A stretch of DNA of 64,000 nt from Candidatus Gottesmanbacteria bacterium (GTDB lineage: Bacteria > Patescibacteriota > Microgenomatia > UBA10105 > UBA927): the NCBI GenBank assembly GCA_963790805.1, contig CAWBPL010000002.1, positions 576,696-640,695 on the forward strand. The letters are read 5' to 3'. Below the pieces are notes generated by a model, which saw only the letters and a list, made by a program, of their open reading frames with translations, was not told the DNA's origin and ran no database searches. Of the stretch, positions 3,079 to 50,700 are shown one piece after another. Both the position numbers and the translations under genes were made by a program. Each line of letters starts with the position of its first letter. Position 1 is the stretch's first letter.

Positions 3079-3291
3079 ATTTTGAGGTTGCAACATCTGT
3101 CGCGGGTGATTCCTTCGGGGTGCTTCGCATCTTCTCACCATCACCGGAGATGATCTCTTTTCTTTGTTTTTTGTCAAATGTAACCACTGGGGGAGTATAT
3201 TTTCGTCTTTTGGCTCCGGTTTGTGATGGTTGCGAATATGCGAGACAACCCTTAGAAAAAATCCACATCGCTCGCGCGCGGCAGGACCAAG

Positions 3292-9111: not shown

Positions 9112-18306
<9,195 letters not shown>

Positions 18307-26700: not shown

Positions 26701-29700
26701 TGCCCAAACCGCATATAAGCAGGCGCTTTCGGATTACAATAACGCGACGAATGAAACCGCGCGCTATGAGGCGGCAAAAACCCTGCAGGGCGCGACAAAT
26801 GATCTCTTGGCGTACCGATCGGCGGCCGAAGTCGAACAGCAGCTTGTGGAAAATCCGCGGAATCCTGTCCAGCGTGCGGGAGATGCAATTGCTTCTTTAT
26901 TCGGTTCTCCGGCAAAAGACCGCTATGCCGCCTATCAGGATGCGGTGGATACGTTCCAAGCGACAGCGAAAGATCATCCTTTAGGAACTCCTGAATATGA
27001 TGCGGCGCTTGTGTCTCTTCGGAAAGCATATAACGGCGTTGAGGCATTGGGATATACCAGCGCCCAGCAGGCGATTAACGCCGATGTTCAGGCGCGGCAG
27101 GATCAGCTAACGCAGTTAAATCAGGAACGCGGACAGACAATTGATGAAATTAACCGGTTAAATGACCAAGCTTCCGCAGACAAAGTCGTAACGGATATCA
27201 GCGATAATCTCAACGGGCTTCGAACCAGCCGCACTGCCATGGGCGACGGAAGCATTCCTCCCGTGTGGGATCCGGCAACCGGCAAATGGACCGTCAATGG
27301 ACAGGAAGTCGGGAGTTATGTCGGTGCAGGATACAAAGTTGAAGAAGTAAACGGTCAACAGGTTTGGAAGACGGTAAATGATAAAGGCGTAGTTTTAGGC
27401 GATGCCGACATTGCAGAAGTGACCCGACTACAGTCTGACGCCCTTCAAACTCAGCGTGCACAACTGGACGGCAAAATTACCCAGACGCAGGAAGCGCTTA
27501 CGAGCGCTCGTCAGATAGCTGATCTTGCAGCCGGTCTCGCAAAGACGGTGCAGGATCCGCAGGCGGTGTTTGAATTGCAATCGCGAAAAACCCGTCTGAC
27601 ACAGCTTTCGACTGCCATAGATGGAGTCAATCGGCAAATTTCGCTTCTTACGACACAGCGAAATAACGCGGGAGGTATCGGCGGAATTATTGCAAGTATC
27701 CGGAACCGATTCAGCAATAATCCGACCGGTGAAGTGACTGCGGGAGCCCGGTCGCAAAGCGCGATGCAGAATACAAACGGTTCGTTCTTTGAAGATCGTG
27801 CGACTCAATCGGTTGCAAATGCTTTTCTTGCGAAAAATGTCTTTGATGCCATGAGCGCAAAGAATATTCCGGTTACTGACGGCGATGCAATTCAGCAGGG
27901 GATTAATGATATTTATAAAGGGTTATTGTCAACGGAAAATTCTCCGAATGGAAAGACGGCTATTTACAATGAGGCATTTGATCAGGCGAAAACCCAACTG
28001 GCAGACGCCGGATATACGGATCAAAAGGCCATTAACAACGCGGCCGACAGAATTGCCAAAGCCGTTGAACAGCAGGTTACCAATGCCAAAACTCAGATAC
28101 AGTTTGCATATGCTAAGACACAATTTGATACTGTACGATCTGTTATTGACGATATTACAACGAAACAAAATCAGCTGGACAAGACGACAGACGCAGCTGC
28201 GCGGGCAAATCTGCAGACACAAATTGATGCCGCCAAAGCCAGTATCGGCGACAGCTTTACGTCGGTATTACCGGAAGTTGATCCGACAGTTGATTTAACG
28301 ACGCGTGAGGCAACACACACCATAAGCCAGAATGTTGTTGAAACCACTTCAGAACGAATTCGTTCCGGCGACGCGCCGAGCAAATCCACAGCCGCAAGAA
28401 TTTTAGAAGATGCGGCGACGGCGAGGCAGACTATAACGAGTCTGGAAGTTGAGCGAGAAGGAAAACTTGCGGCGGCAACTGATCAGACGCAAAGGGATGC
28501 GATCTTGAGAGACTATGCCACCCGTCTGGATGAGCAGGCGCAAGTCCTCGCACAAAAACTTACCGATGCTGCCAGTCTTGCTGCAGGATCCAAAGGGAAC
28601 GCGCAGGAGGCGGCGTATACGCAATTGACAAGTGTTCAAAGCGCAATAAAGAAAGTCAGTTTGCTTGGTGACATCGAGGTGCTTCAGGCGCAGATAGAAA
28701 ATGCCACTGCAAAAGGCGACAACGCGACAGTCGCAAGTCTTACTAAAAAACTTAACACATTGGCAAGCGCTGACGAAGTTGTATTACCCAAGGGTCTTGA
28801 CCCGCAGGCACAGGCGAAATTCGCGGCGATCATGGGCGATACTGAACTTCGCTTAGGCATATTGGACGGATCATTCAGAACGTATCGCGCCAATCAGATC
28901 GATACGGTGCTGGAATTATTGGGAGATAACCGGAAAGCTGTTGAACTTGAAACTGCCGCCGGTAAAACGGTGACGCTTACCGCAATGCTTCGCGTTGATG
29001 TTGATGTGTTCGGCCGCGATCACGGATTATACGTCGCCCGCAAAGGTCAGGGAGAAGCGCTTTTAAGTCAGATCCGGACGCTTGTTCCAAACGGCGACAC
29101 AGACGTTGTGCGCTTAACCTCAGACAGTTTGCGCGGAACTAAAGAACAGGTTCAGGCAATCCGCGATTCACTCAATAACGCAAAAATTATCATTACGGAG
29201 CCGGAGGATTTAGCGTTTATTCGGAACATGGCAACCGAGCGCTATAGCGATCCTGCGATGGGTCAGATGATTCGTGATATTTACCAGACCGCAACAAAGA
29301 ACGTATCACTCGGTGTCGACGAGCTGCAGCTTGCATTTGACCCGTCCATCCAAATGATTAATCCGCCTTCCGCTTCGCGGGCTAACGTGCCGCCTGAGCT
29401 TATCGCCTCCACCAAAAATGTTTACAACGTGTTGCTGGATATGGGCATTATGGAATCGAATAATTCGACGGCGTGGAAAACCGCCGGAGCCGGTGGAGCG
29501 TCTGCAATTATAGAAGGGCATCTGGCTGCCGATGGAAAAACATTTATTAAAGATGCCCGCTTTACCACGGAGACACAGAGCGAAATTTTTAACCGGTTGG
29601 CTCAAGAGACAGGTATGAGCGAAGATACGTTTAATGCGATCGTTGCCGACAGGACGAATTTAAACGCTATCTCCGGAGATTCGGCAAAGATCAATGAGGC

Positions 29701-32700
29701 AGCAAAAGCGTATGGCGTGTCGGGAGACAAAATTAATCAGGTTCTTGATCTTGTCGACACAGTCAACCGGTTTGCAAACGGCCTGACGCTTTCAATGGAA
29801 GATAACTTTTTCCGCGCAAAAGATACGAATGGCCGGCAGTCGACGATTCCGGGAAACGGCGGACAGGCGAGTACCGGTCAGACATATAACTCCCGCATGC
29901 AGGCGGTTATGGAGGCGGTTGGCGCAACAGCATACGGAGAAACACCGGACTTTAACGACCTGAGCGTCGCGCCGGATCAGGCGTACCGGTCAGGATTTCA
30001 TGATGTCGTTGCTGATGTATTGGGGTATGCCAACGGGGCGGTGCGCGCTGTTACCGGTAACATTGCTGAACAGGTGGGCGTTATAACCAACTCATACCAG
30101 ATGGGCGCTTCGCGCGATACGACGGGGACGCTCGCTAAAATTTTCGACGGCACCAACGGCAATCCGCCACGGCTTGCGGCAGACCGGTCATACCATGCTG
30201 CTTCTGACGATTATCTCAAAGTTATTTCCGACATGAAATCAAAGGGACTTTTGGATAAAAGCGGTACGTCGGGTTCGTATGATTCCCACGGAAATGCCAA
30301 GTTTGTCCTTGCCGGAGCCCTCAATATCAGTCCCATGGAATTTGCCCGTCAGCAGCAGTTATCCGGTCATTATGATGCCAACACGACGTGGTTTGTGCAG
30401 CAGGGCGGAACGGATTATTATGCAGTAAAATTCAACGCTGACGGATCCGTTGCCTCTAATGAAGTAGTACAAAATGCAACCGGCAATTCAGGTACCATTG
30501 CCTCTCGCTATCGAAGCGGTGAAGAAAATCTCGTTACCGTAATCGGACTTGGAGGCGCAACGGGAGACAATATTCCGACGCCGGAAAATGTACCGGGTAT
30601 CACGGTTACGACTCCAACGACGGCGCAAGGCGTCGTGCTGCAGGCGGCAAGCCGGCTTGATAGAAGCGATTGGGTGGCAACGCAATATCTTGTGGTTGTT
30701 GATGATGGCGTCCCCTCATATACCGGTAAGCTGGCAAATGCCAAGATGAGTACAGCGGATTTTGCAGGTTTCAGAACGTCTATCGAAGACACGCAGCATA
30801 ATCTGGAACTTCTCAATACCGCGCAGGCCAATACCTTAGGTCTTCAATCGGCGGCAGCCCGCCCGCTTGCCGATATCGTTACGCGGTTTGGCTCGATGAG
30901 CGATCCGGCGGCGCAAAGAGTTGCCGACTGGGCGTCACAACAGCTTCTGGAGCTTTCCTCGTCGAATCAGGGAAGGGATTTGCGGCTGGATGAGGGATCA
31001 GGAAGTCAGACGCTTGATGCGAGAAACCGGCAGTTTGAAGGTTTGGTGCAGCAGTACCAAAAACTTTTCAGCGATCCTGCCAATGAGCAATATTTATCTC
31101 TTATTCAAAAAACCAGTCCGGATTTGTATGCGCGTCTTACCAATAACCGCGATGCAATGAACGGTGCGACACCCGGCCGTGCCTTAACGTATGCAGATGA
31201 TAACGCAACGATTTCAAATACCGCTAAAGATGCGCCGCTTCTTGCGACGGATCTTTCTGATTATCGCCGTATCCACAATACAGTCGTTCAGGCGAAATCT
31301 GAAGCGCAAACGCTTGCCGGAGACGGCAGTCCTGATATACATCCGGTGGTTCAGGCGGCGCAAGCGCAAACCCAAGCTCCCGCGACGGGATTGAAAGGTT
31401 TCATCTCGCGCATCCCCGGCATCGGACAATCGCTTGCAAACACCCTGTTCCCGACAAAGTTTGTGCTTTCCGCCGTGCCATCGCTTGACGATGACATGAG
31501 CTCATCCGCCCTGCCGACACTCAATATCGTGCGTTCCTATGCTTCCACCCAAGTTCGTACGCAGGCAATTACGGCGGCCATCCCGATTATGACTCAAATA
31601 ATAAAAGGGACGACGCCGATTACCGCTCAACAGCGTGCAACATTTATAAGCGGTCTTGCAGCCGCAAAAGTAGGTTTGGATGCAGCGCAGCAATCGCTTG
31701 CACGGGCCCAGCAAGCTGCTGCCGGCACGCAAACATTGACGGGAGCTGATTTAGCCGGAAAACCACTGGCAGCAGGGGACCAGATCGGCGGCGTTAAAGT
31801 ATCAAGCCGCGGGAAAGTGATCCGCGTGTATGCCGACGGCCGTGTAGATCAGGGAGGCGTCACTAATTTGCCGGTTGGTGATCCAACCCAGTGGCAGACA
31901 TTTTATGTCCAGCCGACAGCAACGATACCGAAGCTCACGGGCCGAAAACAGACTGTTCTCAACCGTCTGCAAAATGCCGATAACATTATTGAGATTACTC
32001 CGACAACCACCGTCGCCCGCGCAAAAGCGGTAACTGCACAATCGCAACAGGACCTCGCCGTCGCATCCGAGGCAAGCAGTCGTGCAAACGCACAATACCA
32101 ACAATTTGTTAATGCGATGGGTGATGATATATCAAAACGGATCGTTGGCGTTTTCGGACAGACATCAGTTGATCTGACGCCCCTTCACAGCGCGGTGTCT
32201 GATTATGAAACGGCTCTATTAAATGCTGCGACAGACAACAGCAATCCGCAGGTTACCACGGCAATGCTTCAGGCAAATATTTCGGCTGGAGTGCTTGATA
32301 CGATGAATCAGGCATTGGCAAGTGCGAAAGCGCAGGTTCCTGCGGTTGCCGCAAAGAGCGTTGACGATCTGCGTCAGGAAATATTGGGGGATTCGACAGA
32401 CGCGATGCTTGCCGTTGCCCGAGCGGCTGCGACGCAGGTTTCCAACATACCGACGCCGGACTTAAGCGGCATCGACCGATCCGGCAGCGTGACACCGAAA
32501 TATACATTTAGATCTGTTTTGATAAATTATGTTCTCTTCCCGTCTCCATGGAATCCGAAGTGGTCGCCGGCGGAGAAAGGCAGACAGGTTGCGGCCATGG
32601 TGACGCGATGGGTGGCAACCGGCGGAATAGGTATGGTTGTCGATATGTCCCATTATGTGATTGATGGAGTATTCTTGGGTAACACAGCGTCATCGCAAAT

Positions 32701-35700
32701 GAGAGGAATATTAAACGATTCGCGAATAGGGGGCGTTTCTTCAAAGGGTACAACTCCCGCCGTCGTATCGCCGGATGCGGCACTGGCAAAACTCAAAGAT
32801 TCGCTCGCAGCAGGCAATAGTCCCGCACAGGCAATCCAAGCAGCCGGAGGATACAAAGCGGTCTACAGTGCGCTCCGGTATATGGAAAATGCAAATAGAG
32901 ATGCTGACCGCGCAGTTATTATGGACCTCCTTCGAAAAGACGTTGCCAACCGGTTTGCACAAGCTACCACCAAGACAGTCAAAGCCAACGTTAAAGGCCA
33001 ACGGATGATTGATGCGTTTATAGCCTATGAACTTGATTCGTTCGCACCAATTTCGACGACCGTGGCGCCGGTGCAGCCCGCATTTTTCGCACGCGTCGCT
33101 GCCACAGTAAGTAATTTTCTCGCAAGAGCGCCTCCTGTACGGTGGGTTTTGGGAGTCATAGGTACAATCGTAATAATCGTAGGAATACTTCTCGTCAGTC
33201 TGCCCATATTTGGTCATCACGCGCCTGTAATACAGGGAACCAATCAGACAACGACTCTCGTAGCAGAAAAGACGGTGACGCAATCTCCGCAAGACGCCCT
33301 TACCGCGCAACTGAATTTCGCCAATCAAACGTATACTCTAAACGGCGTATCTCAAGCACCGGAAGCGAAAGCTCCGACAAGCGCGACAGCATCCCAAATT
33401 TCTTTGGCAGGAGTCCCTGATGCGGCAACTGCTGCGTACGTGGAATCCGTTCTGAACGGGCCGGGCGGTACGGTTGACCCCAGCCAAATTCCGCCGCTCA
33501 CGTACGTAAACGGTGCGGGAGACACAATAACCGTACACTTTTCAGCAGACAGCGAGCCGATTGAAGCCTACGAGATTATTGATTTTCAAAATGCGCTCAT
33601 TAAAGCCGGTCCGCTCTATAAAGATTTAAGCGACGCCGACGAGATACGGCTTACCAAAGTTCTTAAAAATACATTATCAGGGGTCAAAGGTACCTATGCC
33701 GATTCGGGCGTGGATTTAATAAGCGGTAAAGAAGTAAAAAGCATAAGATTTACGAGCGATTATGCAACAAATATTTCCCAACTGAACGACCCGCTGAGCC
33801 GTCAGGACGAGGCAAATTTGTCTCCGGTTGCATCGCTTGTTCATGAAATTATTCATTTGACCCAGACGGTAAGAGGCAGCGACGGAAAACTCCACGATTC
33901 CGACAGGTTTGCCAAGTTTCAGGAAATATTTTACGGACCCAATGCTGTTGCCGAACTGCCGCCGACTGCATACGACCGTACGTGGACGGGAGATCAGCAT
34001 CGGATGGCTATGGAAGATGAAGCCGATACGTTTGCTCTCGATGCGGCAGATCCCTCGCTATTGCAATCGATTGCGCCGAATCGATCTGAATTTGCCCAAT
34101 ATATTATGAATGGCGGGGATCCGAGCACGTTTACGTTAAGTGCCGTCGCGCCGGCGGCACCGGAAGCTCAGGTCAACGCACCGGTTGCTGCGAATCCTTC
34201 GGCCGTATCCGATTTAGATTTCACGCACGTTCAAACTCCTGACCAGCTACAGGGTGCACCACAACAGTTTTATGGCGGGATAGGCAATTTCGCAACTTAC
34301 GTTTCTCCATCAAACGCGAACATACAATATCACGTCATGAAAGTGGACATGCATCAGAGCGGAGTGAGTGTTTTGGTTACCCCTGAAACCATGCTCGGTA
34401 TGAAAACTTCGGTATTTGTCGATACGTACGCGCAAAACGGAGTTAAAATCGCCGTCAACGGCGACCAGTGGGTCCGCGGCAGTAATCCGATTGTCATAGG
34501 CGGATACGCAGCATCATACGGAAAGACGTACGGAACACGCGGTAAAGAGGGTACATTGTACATAGACCAGCATAATAATTTTTCCCTTGATTATCCCGGC
34601 AAAGGAAATGAATGGATGGCGATTTCGTTTAACCATCTCCTCATAAAAGACGGGCAGGCGCAACCTGTTAGTAATATTGACACAGAACCGCGGACACTTA
34701 TTGGTGTGACGAAAGATGGGAACATTATCCTTATTGCGGTTGACGGACAGGAGCAGGTGAGCGGGATGACCTATACAGAGGCTCAAAGAATTCTTCTTGA
34801 GCAGGGGGCGTGGATAGGGGTTATGGTTGATGGCGGGTCTTCAACAGCTATGGCGGCACTGGGTGACAACGGAAAAGCGGAACTCCTGAACACTCCAAAT
34901 AATGACGGTGTAACCGAGGAGTCATACGTCGCAAATCAATTTGGCATCGTCATTAATTCGCCGCTCGCAAACGTTTCTTCAAACAATTCAGCCCAAACGG
35001 GGACGGCGGCTACCGGCCAGAGCGAGCCTGCCAATCAGGCTGCACCCGTGTCACAACCCGCACAGACACAACCCCTTATCGCCAATCCGAAAACACCGGC
35101 CGATCGGGCGGTGAACGTATTTGGTGGCGCTCTCAATAATTGGGAAGATTCGCCAGACTGGAAAACCACACCGCCCAGCACCGTCATTAAACAGGTATTA
35201 CAAACTCCATCTGGTCAGGAATTTGCCGGTGCTCTCAATGATCCGGAGTTTGTCTCTGCACTCAACGCGCTTGATAATCAGTATTTGGCCAAACCCGGCA
35301 GAAAAATAGAGTGTGTAGGGTTTGCACAGTTTCTTGCCAGTACATTATTTCCGCCCAAAGCGATGAATATCGGCGGAGCAAATAACGGGGCGGGAATTGC
35401 GAAACAGCTTGTCGGTAATCTGGGAAATAGCGCAAGCGATATCATAAGCGAGAGCGATTATCAGGTGGCGCGCGTTACAAAACCCTCCGACCTCGTTCCC
35501 GGACATTTTTACGTTGTCTATAACAACGGGACAGATGGCCATGTAGGATATATTTTGGATAATGACGGAACAGAGGTTACGGAGGTAAGTGCGAATTTTG
35601 ACCTCGACGGCAAAATAGAAGTGCATACGTTAACGTACGATCAGTTCGTCGCCCGCTATGGTGCGATGAGCAGTAATCCCGCACAATCGCAATTAGCTCT

Positions 35701-38700
35701 CCTTATACCATTCAGCGAGAATGCCCAACAAATCCTTGCAAATAGCGCCGCCGCTTTAGGGTCGGCTTCCAATGCATCGTCACCCATTTCTCCTGCTGTC
35801 CTTTCTCTCCCGTCAACGCCTGTTACCCACACCGTAAACATGGACATAAGTATTCCCGCGCAGTATGCGTCAGCGCGTCAGGTTGCCCGAAGCGAAGCAC
35901 CGAAAGACGGATCCGAGGGAATTGTTCTTACCGATCACGATGAGTGGGCGCCGCTTGCGCCGGCGGACACCCCGTCATGGGCGTTAAGCCGAAATGCGCA
36001 GACGACACGGCGCGTATTGGAATATCTCCATATTAACCAGTCGACGCGATATCAGCCGGCTTCAGGCGAGACATTTTGCAATATATGGGCAGGGGATGTG
36101 ATGCAAATGCTGGGCGTCCCGCTCCCGCGATGGTATTTCAACCCTGATACAAACCAGAAAGAAAAGACGACTGCCAACTGGCTCTACGCATGGCTTCAGG
36201 ATCAGGGCCCGACAGGTGGCAAGGCGGCCGGATGGGAAGAGGTAACGGATCCCGTGTTATTCCAGCAATTGGTAGATGAGGGAGTTCCGGGTTTAGTTGC
36301 AGCTCCGGATAGTCCGCACGGGCACATAACACCCGGCGCACCGACAACCGCTACGGCGAAAGGTGAAACAGTTGGCGGAGTATTTTACCCCAACGTGTGG
36401 TCCGCAGGTGAAACGATTCAAACGGACGTGAGCGCATATCAGGCGTTCCAGAATTCGCGCGGTCTTACGTCAATGAAATTTTTTGTCAACAAAGGATATA
36501 CAAAATATGTAACACCAGTTCAGGGTTCCTCCGTCGGCCCCATTGCGGCGTTAGGCGGATTACTGCAGGGATTGGGTGCAAAACTCGGCGGTAAGAAAGC
36601 GGGAGGACAACAGGCGACAACGGGTACAACCGGTACGACAGGAACCACAACTCCTCCGGCTCCAACGACGGGCGGTGCTGCGGGTACAACCGGTCCTGCC
36701 GACCTTTCGAAAGAATTAGAGCAGGCCATTGTTGACTACCTTATGACCTATGATCGCAGCGTCCTTCGGACATTTTACCACGGAACGACGGAGGAAAAGA
36801 GACAGGTGGCTCGTGACGTCACCAAACAGATAACGGCAGCGCAAAATATCATTTTTGCTGTAGAACAGGTCGCTGATAATATTGAACGGACGATCCGTCC
36901 CGGTGCTCCTTTACCCAGAACTCCTATTAATCCGAATCCTCAGCCCGGTCCAGTCAATAATCCGAATCCGTTTAGGCCGCCGCCCGGTCCGCGTAATCCG
37001 CCGCCTGCTCCCGGTCCGGTGACCGCCTCTGTGGCGCAGGCGCAGAAAGAACTGAATGCCGCAAAACAGCAGCTTATAGCGCTGCAAAAGCAGCAGGCCC
37101 TGCTTCTGACACAACAAAAACAACAGATTGCAGATGTGAAGGCAAAAGATGCGGCTCTAAGATCCGTCAATGACGATCTCGTAAACAAACAGAACGCTTT
37201 TGGCGGATATGTTCCCACGCTTGCCCAGCTCCAAACAAAAATTGATGATCTTAGTGCGCGAAGCGCAGATCTTAGCCAGCAGATTGTACTTGCAGAGAAG
37301 GGCGCAGCAAACACGAAAAATCCTATTCCGCCGGTGAAAGGTAAAGAAGTGCCGGAAGGATCACAGCTGACGCTTCCGCCCCGCGGTACCACATGGGTTT
37401 TCGGGTCCGGTACTGATGCGGATGTGGGTATAGCAGCCGATCAGGATGTTTCTCCCCGACACGGAAGGATTGTGAATGACGACGGCATTTATTACGTTAT
37501 CGATGGTGACGGTAAAAAAGCATCAACGTACGGAACGAGCGTTTACCGTTACGGAGAAATTATCGATGTTAGTTCCAACGCGCGCACACAGCTTCATGCC
37601 GGCGACATTATCTACATGGGAGATAATGGCGTTCAGATGCTCTTCACCGGCACATCGCTCAAGGGTCCGTATTATAACAACGGATTGCCGATGGAAGGAG
37701 CACTGCCTCCTAACAGTCAACTGGTTTCGCTCGACGGGAAAGTGCTGCTTGCTAACCCCGCCAGTTATGAGGATGTTGTTGCGTATCTCCATTCGATTAA
37801 TCCTGAAGATGGGATGACGTTTACCCTTACGTTAAACGGGGCAGATGTATTCCACATTACGTTTGACGGAGCAGTCCGGCTTCTTGCCTTACCCAAGCGG
37901 CTCGACAAAAATCCCTATAGGCCGGATGAGTCTTTTGCGGTAAGCGGTGAGGGGTATATCGGCCGCGAAAACTTGAAGATTGATCTCGCGTATAAAGGTG
38001 AAGTTTCCGTTGAGCATGTGCACTTCACATTGACCCGCAACGGAATTATGACGGTGAGGGATGATAAATCTACAAACGGTACGTGGCTGAATAATGTGAA
38101 AATGCCCAAAGGTACGGTGCAGGTGCTTTCTGCGGGCGATATTTTACAGCTCGGACGGCAGGGGAAGATTCAGTATGTCGGCGTGACCAAAGACGGAAAA
38201 GCAATTTTTCTTGACCTTGTCAAACATAATAATACGCAAAACAGCGGATCGGAAGATGAGACTGACGGGAAAGCAATCAGAACGATTAAAACGGATAATG
38301 ATGCGGTCAAAATGATGAAATCCGTCCTTCACTTCACCGACCCGATGGTGGAAGAAGCAGCACTACAGCAACAGGCGACAGTGATATCAATACGAAGTGG
38401 AATTTTATCCAGCGCGCAACAGAGTGCCCTGCAGGCACGTTTGCAGGCCATGCAGGAAAGCTATCCCTCTGATGTGCGGCTTCAGGCGTTAACAGTATCC
38501 AGTCTTATCAAGCCGGAATATCAGCCGATACTTTTGTATCTCGTCGGCCGTGACGTCTGGCGCAGGTCTACAATTGCCGATCGCATTTTAACAAAACAAA
38601 AAGGCAGGCCCGCACGCGTTTCGGATGCGCAAACCAGAGCCGAAGTCCACGATATGTTAAATAGCGCACAAAAGCTCATAACCGACAAGGTGAATGAGAT

Positions 38701-41700
38701 GGCCGGCAAAAATACAGATATGGCGAAAAAAGCCGGTGTCAATTACGCATACGCAACGCCGACGAATGTCGCGTACGTGGGTTTTGAGACTATGGCGATA
38801 GGGTATAACGAAGAAGCAAATGTTCAGGGATTCGCGATGCGCGACTATAACATACTCAAAGTAACCGATCTGCCGACAAACGATCCCGCACGTGCGCTTC
38901 AACGGATTGCAGAAGTACAGGCGCATGAGGCAGGACATCTGGATCAGGATAAAAAGAACAAAATGAGGCCGAACGTATCTCCGGATGATCAGCAGTTTTT
39001 GGGAAGGAGTCCTTCGTATTGGGAGATTACTAATCAGTGGTGGCGGGTCCTTAAAGTCGTCGGTATGAACAATGACGTTATGCATAGTTCGTATGATGAA
39101 GGCGCGCGGGCATTTGAACAGCTGGTAAACGATTTGACAAGACGAATGGCGCAGGCGGGCCAGAACAATCAACAGGCGCTTAAAGCCGCTATTTTGTCTG
39201 CCACCTACGGGGATGTCATTAAGCCAAACGGGCAGACAGGAATCCGGACGCTGTATGATCAATATTTCGGACGCGGCGCATTCGATGTGCGCATAAGCCA
39301 GTATGCAGATTATTATTACTACAACAAAAAGGGCAGGGCGAAGGTAAGTGCCGAAAGTACCGGTTCGACGGCACCGCCTCCTGCCGCTGCCAGCGCGCAA
39401 CAACCGCCGATCGTCAATGCCGATGATCTTCGTGCGGCGAAAAAAGCGGTGGATAACGAATTAGCTCAAACGAAAGCTCTTTTTACACAAACACAGCAGG
39501 AACAGACTCTGGCGAATGACGCAGTAACTGCGGCACAAAAAGTTAAAGATAAAGCACTAAAGCTCTTTAATGATGCCGCTGCCCTCCATAATCAGACCGT
39601 CACGGATCTTGAAGCGATAAATGCGTCTATTGAAGATTTACAAACAAATACCATACCGCTTCTTACCACCCGCCTTTCACAGGCAGTCGCCCGTCAGGAT
39701 GCCATTACCGCATGGCAGGATGTGTGGAATGATATTAAAAAACTGGATCGGAATGCCAAACCGGCTATTGTTCTTGCAAACGCCGGTGCCGCCGAGATTC
39801 GGGCTGACATTCTGACTCTTCAGGCACAGCTGGAGCAGCTGAAAAATCCGACACATGAGCCCGCTTGGCGAACCAATGTTCTTTCCGGAATGAGTCCTCA
39901 TGATCAGGCAGCTATAACGACGCTGAGGGGTATCTTTGGCGCCAAGACGGGTCGTCAAACGTGGTATTACGCAGGATCCGGAGCAGATATTGCCCCCATA
40001 TTTATTGCTCCAGCCAACACAGAACATCGGTTTGTAGATATTGTTTATGATTCAAATCAACCTTTGTTTCATACTCCCTCAGCTCAGGAATTTACCGAGC
40101 CGTTTAGTAAAATTGGCGCAACTGAAACGGTGTCATCGAATTGGGTTGATGCATGGAAAAATAAGAAACAAACCATCAGCTTAGACGGCGGAACAACAAT
40201 TCAACTTGTCGGAGGTAACGTTCAGGATAAAGCGACATCACCAGACTCTATCGATGTTATTTATACAAATGATCTTTCGGCATCGCAAGGTCCTGACGCA
40301 TTGATCGCTCTTAAAACGGACGGGTACTATGTTGAAACAGATACATTCGATATGGGTTCTTCGAAGATCAAGTTGCTGGGCCTTGGTGTTAATATTGAAG
40401 ATTTAGGATTTAAGAAAGTGAAGACGGTAAAAATAGATGAGTTGAGCTTTCCGTCGATAGGGAAGATACGAGCCACAACAGACGGAAAACCGGTGTGGGT
40501 TCAGGTATATCAAAAATCCCGGTCATTCACTCCAGAAGAGGAAGACATAATTCAGCTTGACGCTTCGGTAAGAGATATAAATGCTGCACTTAGTAATTTG
40601 GTTTTCGTCACTGCATCTCCTAACACTGCTCCTGCTGCCATAAAAGATGCGGAACAAAGTTTAACAAACGCATTTCAACGGTATTTGTCTCGTGTACAAA
40701 ATTTGAAAGGGAATAGCGCCGCGGTTGCACAAAAAGTTCAGGCAAAAATGGACGAATATTTCCCTGCCAGCGGATCGATGCCGGATATTATAAAAAATAA
40801 TACTGGTTCCGCAGGTCGACCGGCAGCAACGATACTTGCCCGCTATAAACGCGCGTGGGAAATTTATAACGCGACATATGTGACCCCCAGTAAAACACCG
40901 TTAACAGCCGACGCGGCAGTTAACGCGGCCGTTGTGAACATCGAAAATAACTCGGACCAGAGTAATGCGGCGGCGATTATTACAGCGATTAATGCGAAGC
41001 TTCCGAAAGGCGGGAAACTTACAGACGTGCAGGAGAAACAAATAAAAGCAGAAGTCGCATGGGCTATTGCGGCACGCCGCTGGGCGAAGATTCCAGATGA
41101 CATCCAAAAGCTTGCCGGTACGCCGAACAAAGATTTGTCCGACGCAGGGATTGCGACATTTGAAGCGCTGGTTGCCAACGGGGAGCAGCTTTTAGCCCAG
41201 CAGAATGCAAAACCCGTACAAACCGGTAAATATCAGGTTGTGCTGACGGCAGATGCGCCGAAAGTGAAAGATAAAATTCACCTCTTTACCTTCGGGATAG
41301 AGAACGACGGGATAATCATCTCAAGTCCGGCCAAGGGGAGTACGGTGTGGACAGTTGCGAATACAAAAACTCCCAATAATCCGATATATGTTGATCAATC
41401 CCAATTGCTGCCGAAAACCAGTATTCCGCCGGTTCCCTCGCTTGCCGGTATTCCGGTTGATGCGTTGGGGAACACGAACCCGATCACCAAAGGCTCGGTT
41501 GTGACGCTTAAAAAATATCGCGGACAGGCCAATGTTAAAGTACAACTCGGCGATATATATAAAAACCTAGCGAATTTTACGGTTATCGAAGGACCTCTTA
41601 AAGGCGACTGGTCAAGTGCGAATTTCAAAGACATGACCATCGTATCGTATGCGCCGCGCGAGAGTGTCGCAAAGGCGTTTACGGATACGATGAATACTGC

Positions 41701-44700
41701 TGATGTGAAAAAAGCATACGTCCGTATCGCCAAAGCAAGTATAGCGCTCGGTGACACGGATGCAGTAACCCGTGCGAAACTTGCGGTGTTGTTTTTTAAT
41801 GATATAGATCTTCTTACGGCCATAAATACAGCCGCAAAGAAACCGCTTTACGCCGTCGAGCGGGTAGCACTTCTTCCTGCGGCGCTTGATTCCATCATGA
41901 CGGCTGCCCGGGCGACTCCCTCTGGTCCTGCCTCCATAACCGCTCCGGCAACTATTCAATTGCGTGGCAGTACGTATAACAAAGGATCGGCTATTCATGA
42001 TGCCACCACGCTTGCGTATTCATTGTTGACTGCACTGAATCTGAATAGTGCGCCGGCAACCCTTCAGGTCGATCATTTCCAGACTGTTGGCGCAGCGCTT
42101 ACTCTTGATTCATTCTTATCCCACACAGAGCCGTTTACCGCCGGAGAGATTCAGCAAAATATAGCCTTTAAGGCGGTTATTGAAGAATACGGTGCCGGAG
42201 ACGTTGCGCGCTTCAGTGCGCCGGACCGGCAGAATGAGTTTATCGTCATGGTTACGGCGCGGGACGCAAGCGGAAATGCAACGGCGTGGCAGGTCTATAT
42301 AAAATCTTCAACGCCGAGCGGCGGAGGTACTGGCGCAGGGGTGGGTGGGGGAACTACCGGCGGGGGTACAGGAAAGAGCGCACCCGCGGCGAAGAAAGCT
42401 CCGGCAAAACCCGCTGCCCCGAAAGCCAAACCCGCCCAGCCGGTTATTTCATCCGGCGGCAGGATGACGGCGCTGGGCGTTGGGATGATATTGGTGAATC
42501 GGGATGACGGAACGCAGTATTTGGTAACAGATACCGATTCACAAAATACTCATTTGCAAAATACTGAAGTCGGAAAACCCACGACATTTAATACCGCCTC
42601 GCTTCTAACATCTTTGAACACAGAGGGCGGCACGTGGTTTGTCGAGCAACCCATAGCGAGTAAATTCATAACAAGTCCAGCGAAGAAGGCGTCGTTGAAT
42701 GAGTTGCGAACATTAACAGATAGTATGATATCTTTTGGATTAGAAAGTAATAGTGGATTAAAACCATTCACCGCAACGCTTGCAAAGGCTCAAAAAACAG
42801 GCGCGACTGAAGGAGAAGTTCAGGTAAAACTGCAGGCGCTCCGTCAAAAATTGATATCCAAGAGAAACAGCATTCTGAACGGATTGACTCCCAACACGCT
42901 GAAAAGTCCGCGAGCGAAAAAGCTCTACCAAACATTCCTGTTTGCGCTTATTTCCCAACAGCCGGCGCTGGGTACGCTCCTCGGGATTGATGACTCGCTT
43001 CCTGATATCGTGTCGTTGTTGCCGAAGATCAAAGCGCTATCCGGTGACGCGGCTTTGATGGCGCAGGCGGCGCAAACAGTGATCAGCGCTCATCCCAATG
43101 AAGTTTCCCAGTGGATAGACTTATGGAAAAAAGAAGTAGATACGCTTCAAAATCCTCCGGCCGCCAAGCCCGCGGCGCCGCAATTACCGCTTAAACCCAC
43201 AATGAGTTTAACGGATTTTGAAGCCGCGATGACCAAGCGGATAGACGCGTTGGCTCTTCAGTATGCCGATAGTGAAACAGGAAAACCGGTTTCAGGAGCA
43301 GAGCTTAAAACGTGGTTTTCATCCAACGTATTTCAAAGTCGCGGGAGCACTCTGGGAACGGAATTTGATGCGCAATTTGGGGCTGATACGCCGAAGAAGA
43401 CGAAACAATCAAATCTCTATCAAAGCCGGTTTGTTGACGCAGTCGTGAAGTATCGGCAGATACCGGTAGACCAACAGAAAGCGTTAGACATGAGACAGGC
43501 GCTTAATACAATGATTCAGGGTCTTGAAACTACTGTGCCCGATGCAAAGAAATATTCCTCTACGGGAGTAAAAACGTCAGCCTATCAACTGACCGCCATT
43601 CTGCAGTATGTGAATGCGATTGTCGGAAATGCGACGCTTCGTAGCACACAATTGCTCTTTCATGATGACGTTATTAATCCCAATAGCGCCCTCTCTAATG
43701 ATACGAAAGCAGAGCTTCGGGGTCTTAACATGATCCAGACGATTCAGGATATGTCGGTGTTAATCAATAAAAAGACAATTACGCAGAAACGGAGCCAAAA
43801 GGCAATCGTTGATCTGGATATCGGCAGCCATACCGGAAATTCTGGTTTAGATGTATTTTCAGAATTTCTCAGTGTGCCGGTACCGTTTATTAATTCAAAT
43901 GACACTGATGTTCAGAATGTCGTAAATTTCTGGAATAAAAGAGCGGCGTTTATTCAGAGTCTTCAACAGGCAAGTAATGCGATTGGCCGTGATGTTGCCG
44001 CTTCCAAGGCAGATCTTGCCGCCAAACGGCGCAGTGTGGCGGGCAATCAAACGGCGCGGGCAAACAGAGCCGTCTTTCCCTTCCTGACCAGTTTGGACAT
44101 GGAGACTCCGAATCCGACAGCTTTTGCAACTCAGGCAGTCAGGGATTTTGATATACATAATTCCCCGTGGGCATATCTTTTGACGGAAGCCGAGCGGCTG
44201 GCGGAATACCAAAAGGCGGCGCCTATCGTTGCCCAGATTATTGCGGTCAGAACAACCGGTATCGGGGACGTCGGGGCTCTCAATCAACTGCTGTTTGGAA
44301 CGCTCGCGAATTCACCGGTGAAAGGATATTATGTGCACGCGATTCTGGATCCCGAGCATTACCATCTGGATGTGAATGGTGACGGAACGCTGACGACGGC
44401 GACCGAGGAGGATTTGCTGCGCTGGCTGGCGCTTCAGGATAGCCTGTATGACGTTGTGAATGAAGCAAAGCAGCGCGTGTCCGCATTTTTTACCTCTCAC
44501 GGTTTAACAGTTCCACAGGAAGAATTTGATCCTTCGAATCTTTCATTTTCAGTCGGCGATGATGCGGTGTTTGATGAGCAATTCATACATGATCATCCCG
44601 AAGAAGTTTCTGCAATGTATAGCGAAAACACCGGCGCCAAAATATTCCGCCAGAGTCTGGTCGCGGCCGCAAGAACTGATCCGCAGGCTTGGGAATATCT

Positions 44701-47700
44701 TATCGACGACTACGTCCATGAATTGGTGCATAGTTCATTGATGCGCAATTACGCTCCGTGGCTGACTGAACAGGCCAATGAGGGTATGGCAATTCTTCTC
44801 ACTGTCGCGCGCCGCGCTGATGATCTGTGGACGCAGGGGAAGCATGACGATGGACAGAACGGTTCCGTCTGGCAACAGGCCGAGCGGGAAGTTTTGGGAT
44901 TACCCGATTCCGATTCGCCGTATCCTGAGACAGTCGTATCTTCTTATATCAACGCATACTTTGCCTTACGATCGAGCACGTTTGGTATGCTTTTTAATAA
45001 CTCTTGGAGTACCTCCGACCGGATTAATGCAGTTATTACGTTTTTTAATGCCACAGACCAGTACCGACCGGATCAGATGGGTGCAGAAGCGGTCAGAACC
45101 GCTCTTCAAAATGCATTTATGACAGGGCTGACGTCGCATGGATTGGTGCTCGCTGAAAATGTTGCGAATACCTATTTCCACGGCGATCAGTTTGCGCAGG
45201 ACACCCCCGATACCGACACGATGTTCCGGCCTGATCGCGCCTCAACTCAAACACCGTTGCCCTATAGACAGGCTTCATCCGTCGCAGGACCTGCGACGCA
45301 GGAAATAGTGACACAGTTTCCCGGTACGAGCGGTTCGCTGAATTGGGATCAGGTCTCATTTGCCGGCGGGCAGACGAGTGTTGCACTGCGGGCGAAAACA
45401 AACATATCCGGAGATAACCGTATGCGTATGCTTGCCGCGTCAAAGATCATCTATGACGCTATGGATCAGGCGTTTGCTTCAAAAGACTGGGAAGGATTTC
45501 CGCTGACCGGTTTGGAGCATTCTCTTCTTGATGTATTTAATTCTCAGGTAGCTCCCGGTATTTTGGCGAATCTGAACGTGAGCTCAGTTACTGATTTGTT
45601 GAACAAGTATGAAATCACCGTTACGCGGCAGATGCAAACCGGCGGGAATTCCATGCAGGAAGTGGTGATTTCGTCCGTACCGACGGCGGCATATGTTGCA
45701 CGCGGCGGCACGCTGACACCGCTTCCGACAAATGCTGATATTACCCAGTGGAAAGCAAAAGTGTATGATGTGCCGTCTGACGGATGGCTCATTGTAAATA
45801 ACGTTGTACCCGCGACGACTCCTTCTGATGCCGATCAACTAGCTCGGGCGCTTAATAGTGTCGAATCGCCGCAGGATGCCGCACGTATCGTATATCCGAT
45901 GATGGAGGAGTGGTCGCCGCTGGTAACGTCATTTTTCTCAGTCGCAAGGGCGCCAGCAGCAACAGCACCAGCACCCGTCGCATCAAGCGCACCAAGTGCG
46001 TTTAGGATCGGAAATAATACGCCGGTTCGCGGAGGGAATCAATCGACGTTAGGGAGTATTTCTCCGGCCCACGCCATTCAGACAAATCACGCAACGCTTA
46101 CCATACGTGACGGCAGCCTGTTTATTACTCAAACAGGTGTATATGGCGTGTGGGTAAACGGCAAGCCGGTTGTCCCGAATGAACAGACCCCGATTGCGGT
46201 TGGCGATGAGCTGACCTTCGGCGAAGATCCGCAAACCGAAACAAACCCGCGAACCTATCGGGTTGCGATGGGGGGAGATCAAACCATTATTTTAGCATCT
46301 CAAAGTGATACGTACTACATACCGACAGCGCTGCCGATCCCTGATGAAGCGCGGTTTAATGACGGCCTTTTCAAAGGAGTCGGCTCTATTCAAAATCCGT
46401 CTGACTGGGCGAGATTTGTCTGGCTTATGCTTTCTGCAAATGGCGAAGCGGGATCTTCCGTGACACTTCAGGGAACCACCATCGGCGGAAATACATTTGC
46501 CGTGACGTATCCTGCCAGTCAACTTATCGAAAAAGCTGCAGAAATCGCCCAGACGTTTCAGCGGGGTACGGAGATTGAAATAGACGGTCCCCAAGGGCGC
46601 CTGGGCGTTATGACCATATCAGCCGGTGGCATGGTTGACATGAGCCTTGATGACGCGGCGTCGCGGCTGGGGCCGGCAAAGATGAGTATCAGCGATTTTG
46701 TTTTGAATGCAGAAGCTCCTGCCGAGGTTCATGCGATGCGCAAAACTCCATCCGCTCAGCTGCCGAAAAATACGGTTCAATCCACTCCGGCAGTAAATCC
46801 GCAAGGTGAACCGCTGTTTCGCCGGATCATAAACGCGATAAAACAGGGTAGTTGGTTCGCGCGGAAAAAGACAAGTATCACTATCGGAAGATTACAAGTG
46901 GATCCGACGAATGGATATGTTTCCGCCAAACACATCCGCTTAAATATCCAAAATAATCGTTTGTACATAACTGATTTATCGACGAACGGAACTGTCATTG
47001 AAGGAAAAAAGCGGTTAAGTACTCAAACGGGACCGGTTCCATTGGTATTGGGAGATGTTTTGGATTTATCAAATAAGGGTCAGGCGTCGAGACTGCGCGT
47101 TGATCAGTTGCCAAATGGCGAAGTACTGCTTATTAATTTAGCGACAAAATATGTCATATCAACCGGTTTAATTCTTCCTCCCATCCGGCAACAGGCCGAC
47201 GGTTCATTTATTGTGAGGACGTACGAACAAATGGGCAAAGCAGGTGATATTACGCTAGGGAGCGGTGCACCGGATACCCTGTCAAGGCTGCAGGCACAGT
47301 TTACTCGGGATGATGATGGAGCCTTGGCCATTGAAGATTTAAATTCCTCCAATGGTACATTTGTAAACGGAAAACAGATAGGGACCCGGCAGAAAATACG
47401 AAGCGGTGACACCATACGGTTTGGCGATGATCCGGATGAAAATATTTTTGAGGTTGTCGCGACTGACAATCAGTCAGGCTACGTGACGCTTCGGCCCGTC
47501 GGAGATTCCACCATTGCCGCGACAGGCAAAATTCAGGATCATTATATGTTTGAGTTGGCGATTTTACATAACCAGACAATCGGTACCAAAGGGGATGTAC
47601 ATATCGGATATGAGAAATATGTTGCACCGGTACAGGCAAAAATAACAATACAGGGCGATAACGCATTTATTGATAACGGATCATCCCAGACTCCGACATC

Positions 47701-50700
47701 GGTAAATGGTTTGGCATTTAACCGGCGACAGTTGGCTGCCGGTGACGTGGTGAATCTGGGAGGGAACGATGTAACAATACGTTTTCTCAGGGTTCAAAAC
47801 GGGGCGGCAATTTTTACCGACTCTTCAGGGTACGTATCAAATTCCAATCCGCAGGCTGAGGGGCGAAACATCCTTTCCTATAGCGAGTCTGATATTGCAC
47901 GTCGCCGGAAAGAGGGTTTAAGTGAGCAGGAGGCAGAGGATGCCCTCCGGTATGGTCTCAATTTGAGTACAGCCAGTATCACGCGCGCTGAGGAACTGGC
48001 AAAATATTTGAAAGACCGCATGGAGGAAGGTTTGTCGACCTCTGAGAAGGCTGCTCTGACGAGCCGGTTGAATTTGCCGCTCCTTCTGCGATCGCGTTCA
48101 AACGGCATTGACAGCCTTACCAGTCCTGAATTGCTCTATATAGCCGGACGAATGGTGAAACACGAAGTGGATATAGAACGTTTAACCGGTAAAACGACTC
48201 AGGAAATTATGGATGCGGCGATGAATATTGTTGAGAAACGCAACAGCGTAGCCAGTACGGTGGGCGTTGATTTGCCCGATGATTATGAAGTAGGGAATCT
48301 GGTGGGGCTGGGGACGCGTATAGCTTCAGGGAAAAAGGATACATGGTGGGGTTTGCAGGTCGGGTCAGGAGATGAATATTATCTTGCGATTGATAAAATA
48401 GCAGATTCAAAAGATCCGTTTGCAACAGCGGTTGAAATACTGGTGCACGAATGGGGTCACAGGGATCAGGCTCCGATAAATAAATCACCCAAGGGTGCGC
48501 CAACATATGATGAAGCAGGAACGCAGGCGATGCTTCTTATGGTGAAAGCGCGTATAAATCAACAGACAATGGCATTTAATTCCTATGCCGATGCTCCGGC
48601 AAACGCGTATCTGGATCTTGTAACCGAGCTGTCAGGTCTTATTCAAAGTCAGGGTAAAGACGGTCATCTGGCACTGCAGGCGGGTATCATCTCGGCGATT
48701 ACCGGACGATTTGACGGGAACATCCAATGGGAGGGACATACGTACACCGGTATACGTGCCCTCTATGACAGCTATTTTGGTGCGGGGTCGTTTGATCTTG
48801 CGATGAAGGGGAAAACGGATGCCGATCTGTATACGAAAAAGCCCGGATTGGCAACGGCTGCATATAGCCAAAATGTTCCTGTAGGAACGGTAGAACAGGT
48901 ACCCGTGAATCCGCTGGAAGCTGTTGGCATGAGCTGGATGCAACGATTCGGGAGCTGGTTTAAGATGAAGTTTTTAAACAGTTGCGGAATTGGCTTTCAC
49001 TTCCTCCCGCAGGTATTTGCCGCCGGATCGTGTACGCCAAATACTCAAAAAGCAGCACACGCTGTTGATGAGGTAACGCAAACGGCAGGGGAAACGCCGA
49101 ACCGGTATTGGTGGAACAGAATCTTGGGCAGATTCTTCGGGTATTGGGTGGCTACTGCTGAAAATTCACCAGCCCAGACAGCGCAAAATACAGCTGGCTC
49201 CACTGCGCTGGTAAATAATGCAGCTACTGTCGAATCCATTTCCCGTGACGATATCAACAATTTACTCGATCATTTTAATGATACAAACTATGTTGAAGCT
49301 CACACGGCATTGTGGACCCCGTCGGTTCAAGCAAATGTAGTTCAACTTTATCAGACGAACCCTGATGCTCTGAAATTTGCACTCACATACTATAAAGATT
49401 CTGTCGAGCTTCGTGTTGGTAATTCTGTTTTGGTAAAAAATATAGAGGACCTTGCCAACACATATACGCAACATACGGAAGTGATTCGCGAGATGGTCAA
49501 TTCCGGAGCCGGTTATTCACCGTTGATTTTAAACTGGTATTTGAATCAGACTGCTCAGGAAACAGGATTTGATTCTGAACGGTTTTTTGCATTCTTACAT
49601 GTATTAGGACCAAGGGCTCATATCATTAAAGTAAGTCAGGATCAAACAGAATCATCCGTTTGGCCTACTGCACAAAACGAAGATATTTCCTTATTTTCGA
49701 AATTGTGGACATTGTATCTTCAAAATCCGGTTGAAGTAGAAACGCTATTAAACTTATCGCCGACCGAGTTTTATGTCAAACGATCAAACATGCCGAACAT
49801 TGATATAGTTCCCGGTCAGTATTACAGCGCAAACTGGTTATTTGAGTATCTCGCGACTGATTTATCCAACGTCCCATGGAGCTTTGTGCAAGATCACATG
49901 AATTCTGGAGAAAATATAACATATCGAGATTTGGTTCGTTTAAACAAGATATACGCCAATAAAGATGATAGTTATCTTCTGGTTCAGGATGGCATTGCCG
50001 CGGGAATGCATGTATCTGCCGTTGCGGCACTTCCGAATGTTGTGGGCGGCGACCCGTATAATGGGGATAATTTTTCCGTAAAATTTGGGCCGGTTTTAAC
50101 GGATCAAATCAGTAATTTTCTAAATAATGCAGACGCATGGAATCGTTCTGATTTTTTGACCATTTTTCGGGATCCGAATTCGTACAAACTCGTCCATAAT
50201 CCAGTGGAGTCAGATCAGTGGCGTCGGATGGCGACATTGCCTACAGATGACGATGTGCTTTTTGCTGCGGCATATCCACGTCTGTACTTTCTAAAAGATT
50301 ATGAGGCGGATTTAATTGCAAAATATGGTGAAGATGGACCCATAATAAATATCCTTCAGGTGTTAGAAGAAGATCCGTCGCTCCGTTTGGATACGCATCC
50401 CGCATGGAAACTTCGCGCATTATCATACATGGATGCCTATGGCAATGAACTATCAGGAAAAGCACTCACTTTTTACAAAATGCTGCGGAAAGCCGAATTG
50501 CCACTTAGCATGTGGCCGGTATTTATCGCATACAGAAACGAGTTGTCTCAGGTGCCAATCAATTCAAAGAAGGATGCGCTCTCAGCACTTCTGCACGTCT
50601 GGGATTCGAGTGAATCCATTAAAAGATTAAAAGAATTGAACTTTACCCCGCCATGGAACGGTTTCGGAGACGATTTAACCATACAGGTAGAGACGCTCAG

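Follow-up and report, generated by a model that had tools for sequence, protein, structure and literature searches.

The window analysed here, 64,000 nucleotides (nt) from a Candidatus Gottesmanbacteria bacterium (contig CAWBPL010000002.1), contains one giant open reading frame (ORF) of 12,323 amino acids (aa) on the + strand (20792..57763), without internal stop, in which residue n starts at nt 20792+3(n-1). Its product is a membrane protein that combines a SecA-like ATPase, a cassette of hydrolases and a series of FHA, zincin-like and GNAT-like modules. The region from 28873 to 38160, which lies wholly within this ORF, was described in an initial annotation as a topology paradox, since modules of cytoplasmic type and modules that act on the wall outside did not seem to be separated by enough transmembrane (TM) helices. 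That these modules co-occur without a clear helix between them stands, but the paradox is probably only an apparent one, and a marginal segment at aa 5246-5267 had been missed. The reading that we tentatively favour, from comparison of sequences, is that the hydrolase cassette forms a loop outside the cytoplasm and that a weak helix leads the chain back in, which would give the protein a conventional polytopic layout. The three unusual readings offered at the time (FHA and zincin-like modules outside, hydrolases kept inside until released, or delivery of parts of the protein into another cell) are not the best supported: both the relatives of the protein and its distribution of basic residues favour a missed weak return segment, the very situation that the initial annotation had itself named as one that would undo the paradox.

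In the proposed layout the N-terminus would lie inside and the chain would cross the membrane at TM1, pass through a Cys-rich surface region and return at TM2. A cytoplasmic coiled-coil region with the divergent SecA-like motor would then lead to TM3 (in to out) and to an extracytoplasmic loop of 1,100 residues carrying a zincin-like domain, a NAGPA phosphodiester glycosidase domain, a CHAP-like domain and a second papain-like amidase. A weak, Gly-rich return helix (aa 5246-5267, out to in), for which a membrane-spanning state is proposed, would close this loop. Some 6,000 cytoplasmic residues with six FHA domains, three more zincin-like modules with an HExxH motif and GNAT-like domains would come next. 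After them, a bundle of about 10 TM helices would lead into a basic loop in the cytoplasm, from which the last TM helix would take the chain out to an external, Cys-rich, zincin-like C-terminus.

A strong helix before the hydrolase cassette and a weak candidate after it

Membrane segments were called from Kyte-Doolittle (KD), GES/TopPred-like and re-implemented Hessa-2007 dG scans; the GES/TopPred-like scan over-calls Thr/Ser/Gly-rich linkers and is unusable alone. The KD and dG scans give about 14 TM helices for the whole protein. The strongest of them is TM3 (aa 4116-4140; 33137..33211, + strand; KD19 2.95, dG -2.96), which corresponds to the one clean helix (33137-33214) previously noticed between the ATPase and the cassette. 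Two Arg are found in the 15 residues before TM3 (three within 21, counted by eye) and no Lys or Arg in the 15 residues after it, and judged from these flanks TM3 is predicted to have its N-terminus in and its C-terminus out. The reverse orientation was rejected, because the N-side is basic and the ATPase would end up outside.

Beyond TM3, the KD and dG scans find no segment with dG <= 2.5 kcal/mol or with normal TM hydrophobicity in aa 4148-11237 (segment C). KD19 peaks at 1.14 between the end of the cassette (aa 5235) and FHA1 (aa 5527), in agreement with the earlier remark that no convincing helix lies between the two. Threshold-level TM calls alone thus put NAGPA and FHA on the same side of the membrane, whichever way TM3 is oriented.

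Only one segment between aa 5236 and 5526 is hydrophobic, and this is the candidate return helix TM4 (aa 5246-5267; 36527..36592, + strand; KD19 1.14, GES 1.24, dG +3.7). Its sequence, SSVGPIAALGGLLQGLGAKLGG, is followed by KK (together aa 5246-5269, nt 36527-36598), then by a Thr/Gly/Pro linker and a conserved block. The GES/TopPred-like score of 1.24 is the highest in segment C. At the same place relative to the first zincin-like domain (zincin-1) and to a conserved LEQAIVDYL block, the related giant protein L005g has FTVGSVLLGVWQAVQRWTNSRR, again hydrophobic and then basic. A metagenome scan with the alignment of TM3 and zincin-1 returned no relative.

The profile of lysine plus arginine (K+R) supports a change of membrane side at about aa 5250. 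K+R amounts to 11.0% in the 163 residues before TM3, to 6.1% in zincin-1 and 5.3% in the insert that completes the cassette, and to 10.8% both in aa 5267-5526 and in aa 5527-6200. The cassette differs in this respect from the 6,000 residues downstream (Fisher p=3e-5) but not from the Cys-rich segment A near the N-terminus (p=0.93), while the downstream region and the motor segment are alike (p=0.28). The same pattern, high inside and low outside, is seen in the relatives P0004, P0007, P0009, P0013 and L005g.

A number of observations weigh against the return helix. By KD19 the segment ranks only 11th in segment C, at a dG of about +3.7 kcal/mol it is equalled or bettered by more than 15 other stretches of segment C, and its composition includes 8 Gly, 1 Pro, 1 Gln and 1 Lys. 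Its near flanks are charge-balanced (2 Lys before, 2-3 after), which leaves the positive-inside rule uninformative. The junction is covered by one other sequence only, that of L005g, and the differences in K+R could reflect the type of domain rather than the compartment. Finally, these are hydrophobicity scans only, and the dG values come from our own re-implementation of the published scale, which gives sensible results on obvious helices.

An even number of crossings between the motor and the FHA domains could also be restored ahead of TM3. A conserved, weakly hydrophobic segment at aa 3932-3952 (32585..32647, + strand) has a dG of +3.1, slightly better than that of the aa 5246 candidate, and its equivalent reaches a KD19 of 1.56-1.65 in L004g and L005g. 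Were it to pair with TM3, only aa 3953-4115 would be outside, and aa 4148-11237, hydrolases included, would be held in the cytoplasm until lysis or processing. We consider this very unlikely. The loop aa 3953-4115 looks cytoplasmic, since it is net basic with 11.0% K+R, and TM3 has arginines on its N-flank and none on its C-flank. The K+R content of the cassette is low, like that of the external segments, and NAGPA domains are typically secreted, periplasmic or luminal. The family speaks on both sides: the relative P0026 has a CHAP-like domain without a strong TM ahead, whereas P0013 and P0007 appear to export theirs (P0013 together with an SLT domain) behind a strong TM.

FHA domains and wall hydrolases in the relatives

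Relatives of the giant protein were collected by protein searches, by a genome scan (L004, L005) and by a metagenome scan (L007-L013). The core that they conserve corresponds to aa ~1200-3980, and everything downstream of it is modular and variable. In six relatives (P0004, P0008, P0009, P0010, P0013 and L010g) a distance of 509-1,478 aa separates the motor from the first FHA domain behind it, with no KD19 window >= 1.3 in between; the FHA assignment was confirmed by Pfam in the first four and comes from a local hidden Markov model (HMM) in P0013 and L010g. Since no hydrophobic segment separates motor and FHA in these six proteins, the FHA domains of the family are predicted to reside on the motor side, i.e., in the cytoplasm. 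A single clear TM between motor and FHA is peculiar to the giant protein among the family members.

The wall hydrolases of the relatives are arranged differently from their FHA domains. A classic signal-anchor with a basic N-flank (...RLKERAKQIRDFLKTNKTANRIFKVIGAAAIVITILVLFYNLIKP..., aa ~5003) precedes the CHAP-like domain, the SLT domain (Pfam 3.6e-7) and the amidase homologue of P0013, and in P0007 the CHAP-like domain is preceded by TM6537. With wall hydrolases behind a strong TM of their own in these two proteins, the family layout would be a conventional one. Two further peaks, TM5867 of P0013 and TM6784 of P0007, were rejected as real helices, as they fall inside or at the start of the SLT/CHAP-like domains.

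L005g shares TM3 and zincin-1 with the giant protein and continues with a block homologous to aa 5308-5363. Its variable downstream part comprises, at aa ~6069-6159, a domain of the HopA1 type III effector family (Pfam E=4.4e-6, above the cut-off). A distant relative, P0002 (3,004 aa, no TM helix found), is encoded near a gene for a DUF87/TrwB (VirD4-like) coupling protein and adjoins a Fic gene (L001 1362-3728, 19065-20276), which hints at a link of some family members to type IV secretion or mobile elements. In L002 (JGI 3300072975) the syntenic giant gene is split by gene calling into two ORFs that overlap in different frames (16684-16771, at the equivalent of aa ~3500), the result of either a frameshift or an assembly error, and beyond the equivalent of aa ~3980 its sequence is unrelated to that of the window. 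Two of the related contigs, L007 and L013, reach 1.17 and 0.84 Mb.

The lack of normal TM hydrophobicity throughout aa 4148-11237 would also suit a protein that has no return helix at all. TM3 would then be a signal-anchor and all of these residues would be outside, perhaps exported with the help of the SecA-like motor in cis; the hydrolases would breach the wall of a neighbour, and the FHA, zincin-like and GNAT modules would act in, or reach, the cytoplasm of the other cell. Low Cys is expected of polypeptides that must stay translocation-competent, and segment C is extremely poor in Cys (8 in 7,090 aa). However, the motor segment is equally Cys-poor, so that Cys depletion does not discriminate. 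The strong variation of the downstream modules between relatives, the HopA1 domain of L005g, the genes around P0002 and a Hint/pretoxin-HINT-like domain in the N-terminal region all fit an array of effectors, as does the cytoplasm-type Pfam content that, according to a 2026 Omnitrophota preprint (10.64898/2026.06.07.730766), is predicted for the outer side of a different giant protein. In contrast, the relatives keep FHA on the motor side, and the K+R content of the downstream region matches that of the cytoplasmic segment, not that of the external ones. Furthermore, no secretion-system marker, immunity-like pair or mobile-element context was seen in the window, and the locus is chromosomal and syntenic in L002. 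We also know of no route by which 6,000 residues could enter a target cell. An exported array of this sort is thus unlikely. Less likely still is a self-exporting, contact-dependent train of effectors, of a kind not described before, in which the cis motor would thread about 7,000 residues out of the cell to breach a neighbour and act in its cytoplasm.

The hydrolase cassette

Returning to the external loop that we favour, its first module is zincin-1 (aa 4207-4457; 33410..34162, + strand), which is defined by an HExxH motif (HEIIH at aa 4351) and has no library match. It is 35% identical to aa 4167-4414 of L005g, where it likewise follows a strong TM. The NAGPA domain (aa 4549-4719; 34436..34948, + strand; Pfam PF09992, E=9e-25) is nearly full length, covering profile positions 1-168 of 169 with 88.3 bits against a cut-off of 25. 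The CHAP-like papain-fold domain (aa 4825-4965; 35264..35686, + strand; Cys4841, His4917) gives Pfam matches below the cut-off (PF05257, E=0.011-0.034, 15-17 bits against 26 in the giant protein, P0007 and P0026) and no PDB profile match, and its Cys/His/Asn triad is invariant in four homologues. The last module, a second papain-like amidase candidate (aa 5048-5235; 35933..36496, + strand; Cys5096), is homologous to aa 6035-6197 of P0013 and has no library match; its papain-like Cys...GH pattern was read from the sequence by eye. Of the module identities given in the initial annotation, NAGPA and FHA exceed the Pfam cut-offs, while the CHAP and GNAT matches remain below them.

The stretch with NAGPA, CHAP-like domain and amidase (aa 4458-5235) is absent from L005g. 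Because L005g passes from zincin-1 directly to the block homologous to aa 5308-5363, the stretch appears to be an insert specific to this lineage, and it would have landed in a loop that was already external. There it might remodel or attack the cell wall, alongside the product of the conserved LysM-M23 gene upstream.

The SecA-like motor

The motor (aa 2688-3335; 28853..30796, + strand) is built from two RecA-like domains and has an insertion that follows Walker B. An AlphaFold (AF2) model built from an 11-sequence alignment has a pLDDT of 79.8 (an earlier run with three sequences, pLDDT 45, was discarded). Its five best Foldseek matches in the PDB are all SecA or SecA2 (6itc, 5k9t, 6sxh, 3iqy and 1nl3), with E=1.2e-12 and TMq 0.53 for 6itc_A, and XPD/DinG helicases come next. 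Invariant in the 11-sequence alignment are T34, G37 and K38 of Walker A, D156 and E157 of Walker B, T401 and G402 of motif III, and Q597, R601 and R604 of motif VI (QxxxRxxR).

At the level of sequence the picture is different. No Pfam family, SecA_DEAD included, and no PDB sequence profile matches the motor; together with the zincin-like domains, the second amidase and most of segment C, it yields nothing useful in Pfam, NCBIfam, PHROG and PDB sequence searches. When its profile was aligned to E. coli SecA with hhalign, only the Walker A region was matched (SecA residues 78-114, 37 columns), and not significantly (E=0.012). Scaffold, wing and C-terminal domains of SecA were not identified in the motor, the absence of scaffold and wing having had no direct test. 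An exhaustive HMMER search retrieved 31 relatives among 1.84 billion representatives; no ordinary SecA is among these 31, about 16 of which are further giant proteins with lengths of roughly 3,000-7,800 aa.

The name SecA-like, already used in the initial annotation, is therefore correct for the fold as modelled, but the motor is not a member of the SecA family by sequence or by accessory domains. It has in common with SecA and SecA2 the fold, the invariant motifs and the insertion after Walker B, the place where SecA carries its preprotein-binding domain. Unlike SecA, it starts at residue 2,688 within a membrane protein of 12,323 aa, and it lacks significant sequence similarity to SecA. Such a motor might assist, in cis, in passing the long external loop through the Sec channel.

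Downstream modules and the C-terminus

The FHA domains occur in two groups. FHA1, which is degenerate, and the canonical FHA2 (aa 5527-5800; 37370..38191, + strand; Pfam E=1.8e-16) come first, and FHA3-FHA6 (aa 8405-9003; 46004..47800, + strand; PF00498, E=4.4e-35) follow much later. Alignment shows the full phosphothreonine-binding set Arg/Ser/His/Asn in two of the six copies, FHA2 and FHA4, the other four being degenerate. In NCBIfam, the FHA copies match the FHA parts of FhaB/FipA, TagH and GltG, with scores far under the family cut-offs. If the FHA domains are cytoplasmic, the canonical copies may couple the hydrolase machine to Ser/Thr-kinase signalling inside the cell.

HExxH motifs are present at aa 4351, 6045, 7976, 9219 and 12184. 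The second of them (HEAGH) belongs to zincin-like domain 2 (38639..39361, + strand), which has a duplicate at aa 9177-9360. In fact, a whole supermodule of FHA, helical and zincin-like (HExGH) parts is present twice, at 37370-39361 and at 46004-48871 (aa 5950-6190, used as query, match aa 9177-9360). A GNAT-like domain (aa 10895-11010; 53474..53821, + strand) is matched by Acetyltransf_1 (PF00583) with E=1.1e-3 and 19.7 bits against a cut-off of 20.7, and by a PHROG acetyltransferase with E=7.5e-3.

The loss of phosphothreonine-binding residues from four of the six FHA copies is what one might expect if these domains were truly extracytoplasmic and had been re-purposed as binding or scaffold folds, or if the insertion particular to this lineage had upset the topology of a gene that is decaying or was mis-assembled. 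Pointing the same way are the GNAT and CHAP matches under the Pfam cut-offs and the fact that the cassette is an insertion relative to L005g. Yet the complete Arg/Ser/His/Asn set of the two other FHA copies and the conserved catalytic triad of the CHAP-like domain speak against such readings, and a 37-kb ORF without a stop, in which GC content is uniform across the junctions (about 0.50-0.52), speaks against decay or a chimera. Both variants taken together seem quite improbable.

The C-terminal bundle (aa 11237-11765; 54500..56086, + strand) has about 10 TM helices. KD thresholds give 10 or 11 and the dG scan gives 10, the KD parity being too uncertain to fix an orientation. An even number of 10, together with the net-basic loop that follows (aa 11764-11996, net +7.7% basic), is consistent with a start of the bundle inside. 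The last TM (aa 11997-12022) is followed by a Cys-rich zincin-like domain with HEMLH at aa 12184 (56780..57760, + strand for helix and domain together), which is presumably outside. Just before this helix (~56700-56760, aa ~11973-11990) is a run of ten prolines and then KKKRIR (flank PPPPPKKKRIR).

The N-terminal half

TM1 (aa 53-73; 20948..21010, + strand; KD19 2.56, dG -2.04) is an N-terminal signal-anchor, with an equivalent in most full-length relatives. Segment A (aa 74-1622; 21011..25657, + strand), which follows it, is rich in Cys (40 residues) and in Thr, Ser, Pro and Gly, has few basic residues, and is presumably extracytoplasmic. It harbours the Hint/pretoxin-HINT-like domain (aa 299-448; 21686-22135), whose matches are below the Pfam cut-offs and whose location in an external region makes autoproteolytic processing possible. 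Ahead of this domain, at nt ~21140-21400, are three copies of a Cys-containing repeat (~EGCxSGYRQSGLxCT). A Hint-like match is also found in L008g (its aa 6108-6198).

The Ala-rich TM2 region (aa 1623-1670; 25658..25801, + strand; KD19 2.24, dG 0.57) was counted as one pass, so that the motor falls in the cytoplasm; several relatives have a single TM at this position and others two adjacent peaks. An Ala/Gly-rich, moderately hydrophobic region of about 250 aa (25658-26500, aa ~1623-1900) follows TM2 and is conserved in relatives. All six Cys of the motor-side segment fall in this region, as do several hydrophobic stretches that stay below threshold (dG 2.8-3.9).

Genomic neighbourhood

The gene for the LysM-M23 peptidase lies immediately upstream of the giant ORF. 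Downstream are a small ORF (218 aa), which has no family match in the library scans, and then YfhO-like and NPCBM membrane proteins. Other genes of the window encode a TrmB-type regulator, a DUF2298/Chlor_Arch_YYY membrane protein, a polysaccharide deacetylase, Rho and two unannotated multi-TM proteins, and glycosyltransferase-like membrane proteins are among the flanks. The synteny with L002 extends to the DUF2298, Rho and LysM-M23 genes. PHROG matches were negligible.

Rho (4431-6113, + strand) is 50% identical to its E. coli counterpart, carries an insertion of 18 aa and is extended at its N-terminus by an Arg/Gly-rich stretch of 178 aa. The 'Gammaproteobacteria' labels of two related metagenome-assembled genomes (L004, L005) are doubtful and probably mislabels, in view of a Rho only 50% identical to that of E. 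coli, its 178-aa extension and the Chlor_Arch_YYY neighbour. A further neighbour of 3,060 aa (9112-18294, - strand) begins with two MerR-type helix-turn-helix domains, has one strong TM at aa ~226 and then collagen-like G-x-x repeats over about 350 aa, followed by a LamG domain. This arrangement suggests a regulator that is tethered to the membrane and carries a huge fibre outside the cell, in a conventional topology.

Relation to known systems and significance

Giant bacterial membrane proteins with many TM helices, a divergent SecA-DEAD motor and wall-degrading domains have been described, and export by a cis motor was proposed for them (West-Roberts et al. 2023, bioRxiv 10.1101/2023.11.21.568195). 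Both preprints on giant proteins voice doubt about localisation (10.1101/2023.11.21.568195; 10.64898/2026.06.07.730766); 'highly unlikely' predicted localisations and domains of cytoplasmic type placed outside by prediction are pointed out by the authors themselves. The present protein is similar to the published SecA-DEAD giants in its length above 10,000 aa, its many TM helices, its wall-degrading domains, the lack of HMM annotation over most of its length and its embedded SecA-like motor, of which only the first nucleotide-binding domain (NBD1), the insertion and the second (NBD2) are seen here. In contrast to theirs, its motor matches no Pfam SecA_DEAD or PDB sequence profile and is visible by structure only. 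Its family is also small (the 31 in 1.84 billion), with FHA domains recurring in many members and six in this protein. Moreover, the published giants are from Omnitrophota and are encoded near genes for type II secretion or carbohydrate import, none of which was found in the 64-kb window.

FHA domains on membrane proteins with envelope-facing parts are familiar from FhaB/FipA (Rv0019c), TagH of type VI secretion, GltG and YscD, and it is in the FHA regions of such families that the FHA copies of the giant protein have their best NCBIfam and Pfam matches. These cytoplasmic scaffolds of envelope machines, tethered to the membrane, are small and have one FHA each. Since the scores of the giant protein are far under the family cut-offs, it shares a domain with them, but not a family.

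Wall-lytic and cytoplasm-acting modules are mixed on one polypeptide in MARTX toxins, in polymorphic toxins with pretoxin-HINT and in the polyvalent proteins of phages and conjugative elements. The giant protein resembles these in a module set that varies between relatives and in its Hint-like and HExxH modules. However, Pfam, NCBIfam and PHROG scans revealed no secretion-specific domains or repeats in it, and its Hint-like domain is near the N-terminus rather than ahead of a C-terminal toxin as in polymorphic toxins. Unlike MARTX and polymorphic toxins it is anchored in the membrane by about 14 TM helices, and whereas polyvalent proteins are encoded on phages, plasmids or conjugative elements, its context is chromosomal and syntenic.

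The giant protein and its localisation puzzle therefore belong to a kind that is already published. What is new is a small family with recurrent FHA domains and a motor that is invisible to sequence profiles, as well as the argument from TM parity and K+R profile, by which the paradox is probably removed in the present case. Provided that the weak helix is real, we are dealing with an ordinary, though enormous, polytopic membrane protein, and threshold-level TM calls on giant proteins would create false 'paradoxes' that family-wide parity and basic-residue profiles can resolve. If it is not, external FHA and GNAT domains would point to another cell as the recipient of a very long effector array and, should this be true, to a new mechanism of interaction for predatory bacteria or those with small genomes. 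In both cases, the giant proteins collected here form a small family whose SecA-like motor goes unseen by sequence profiles.

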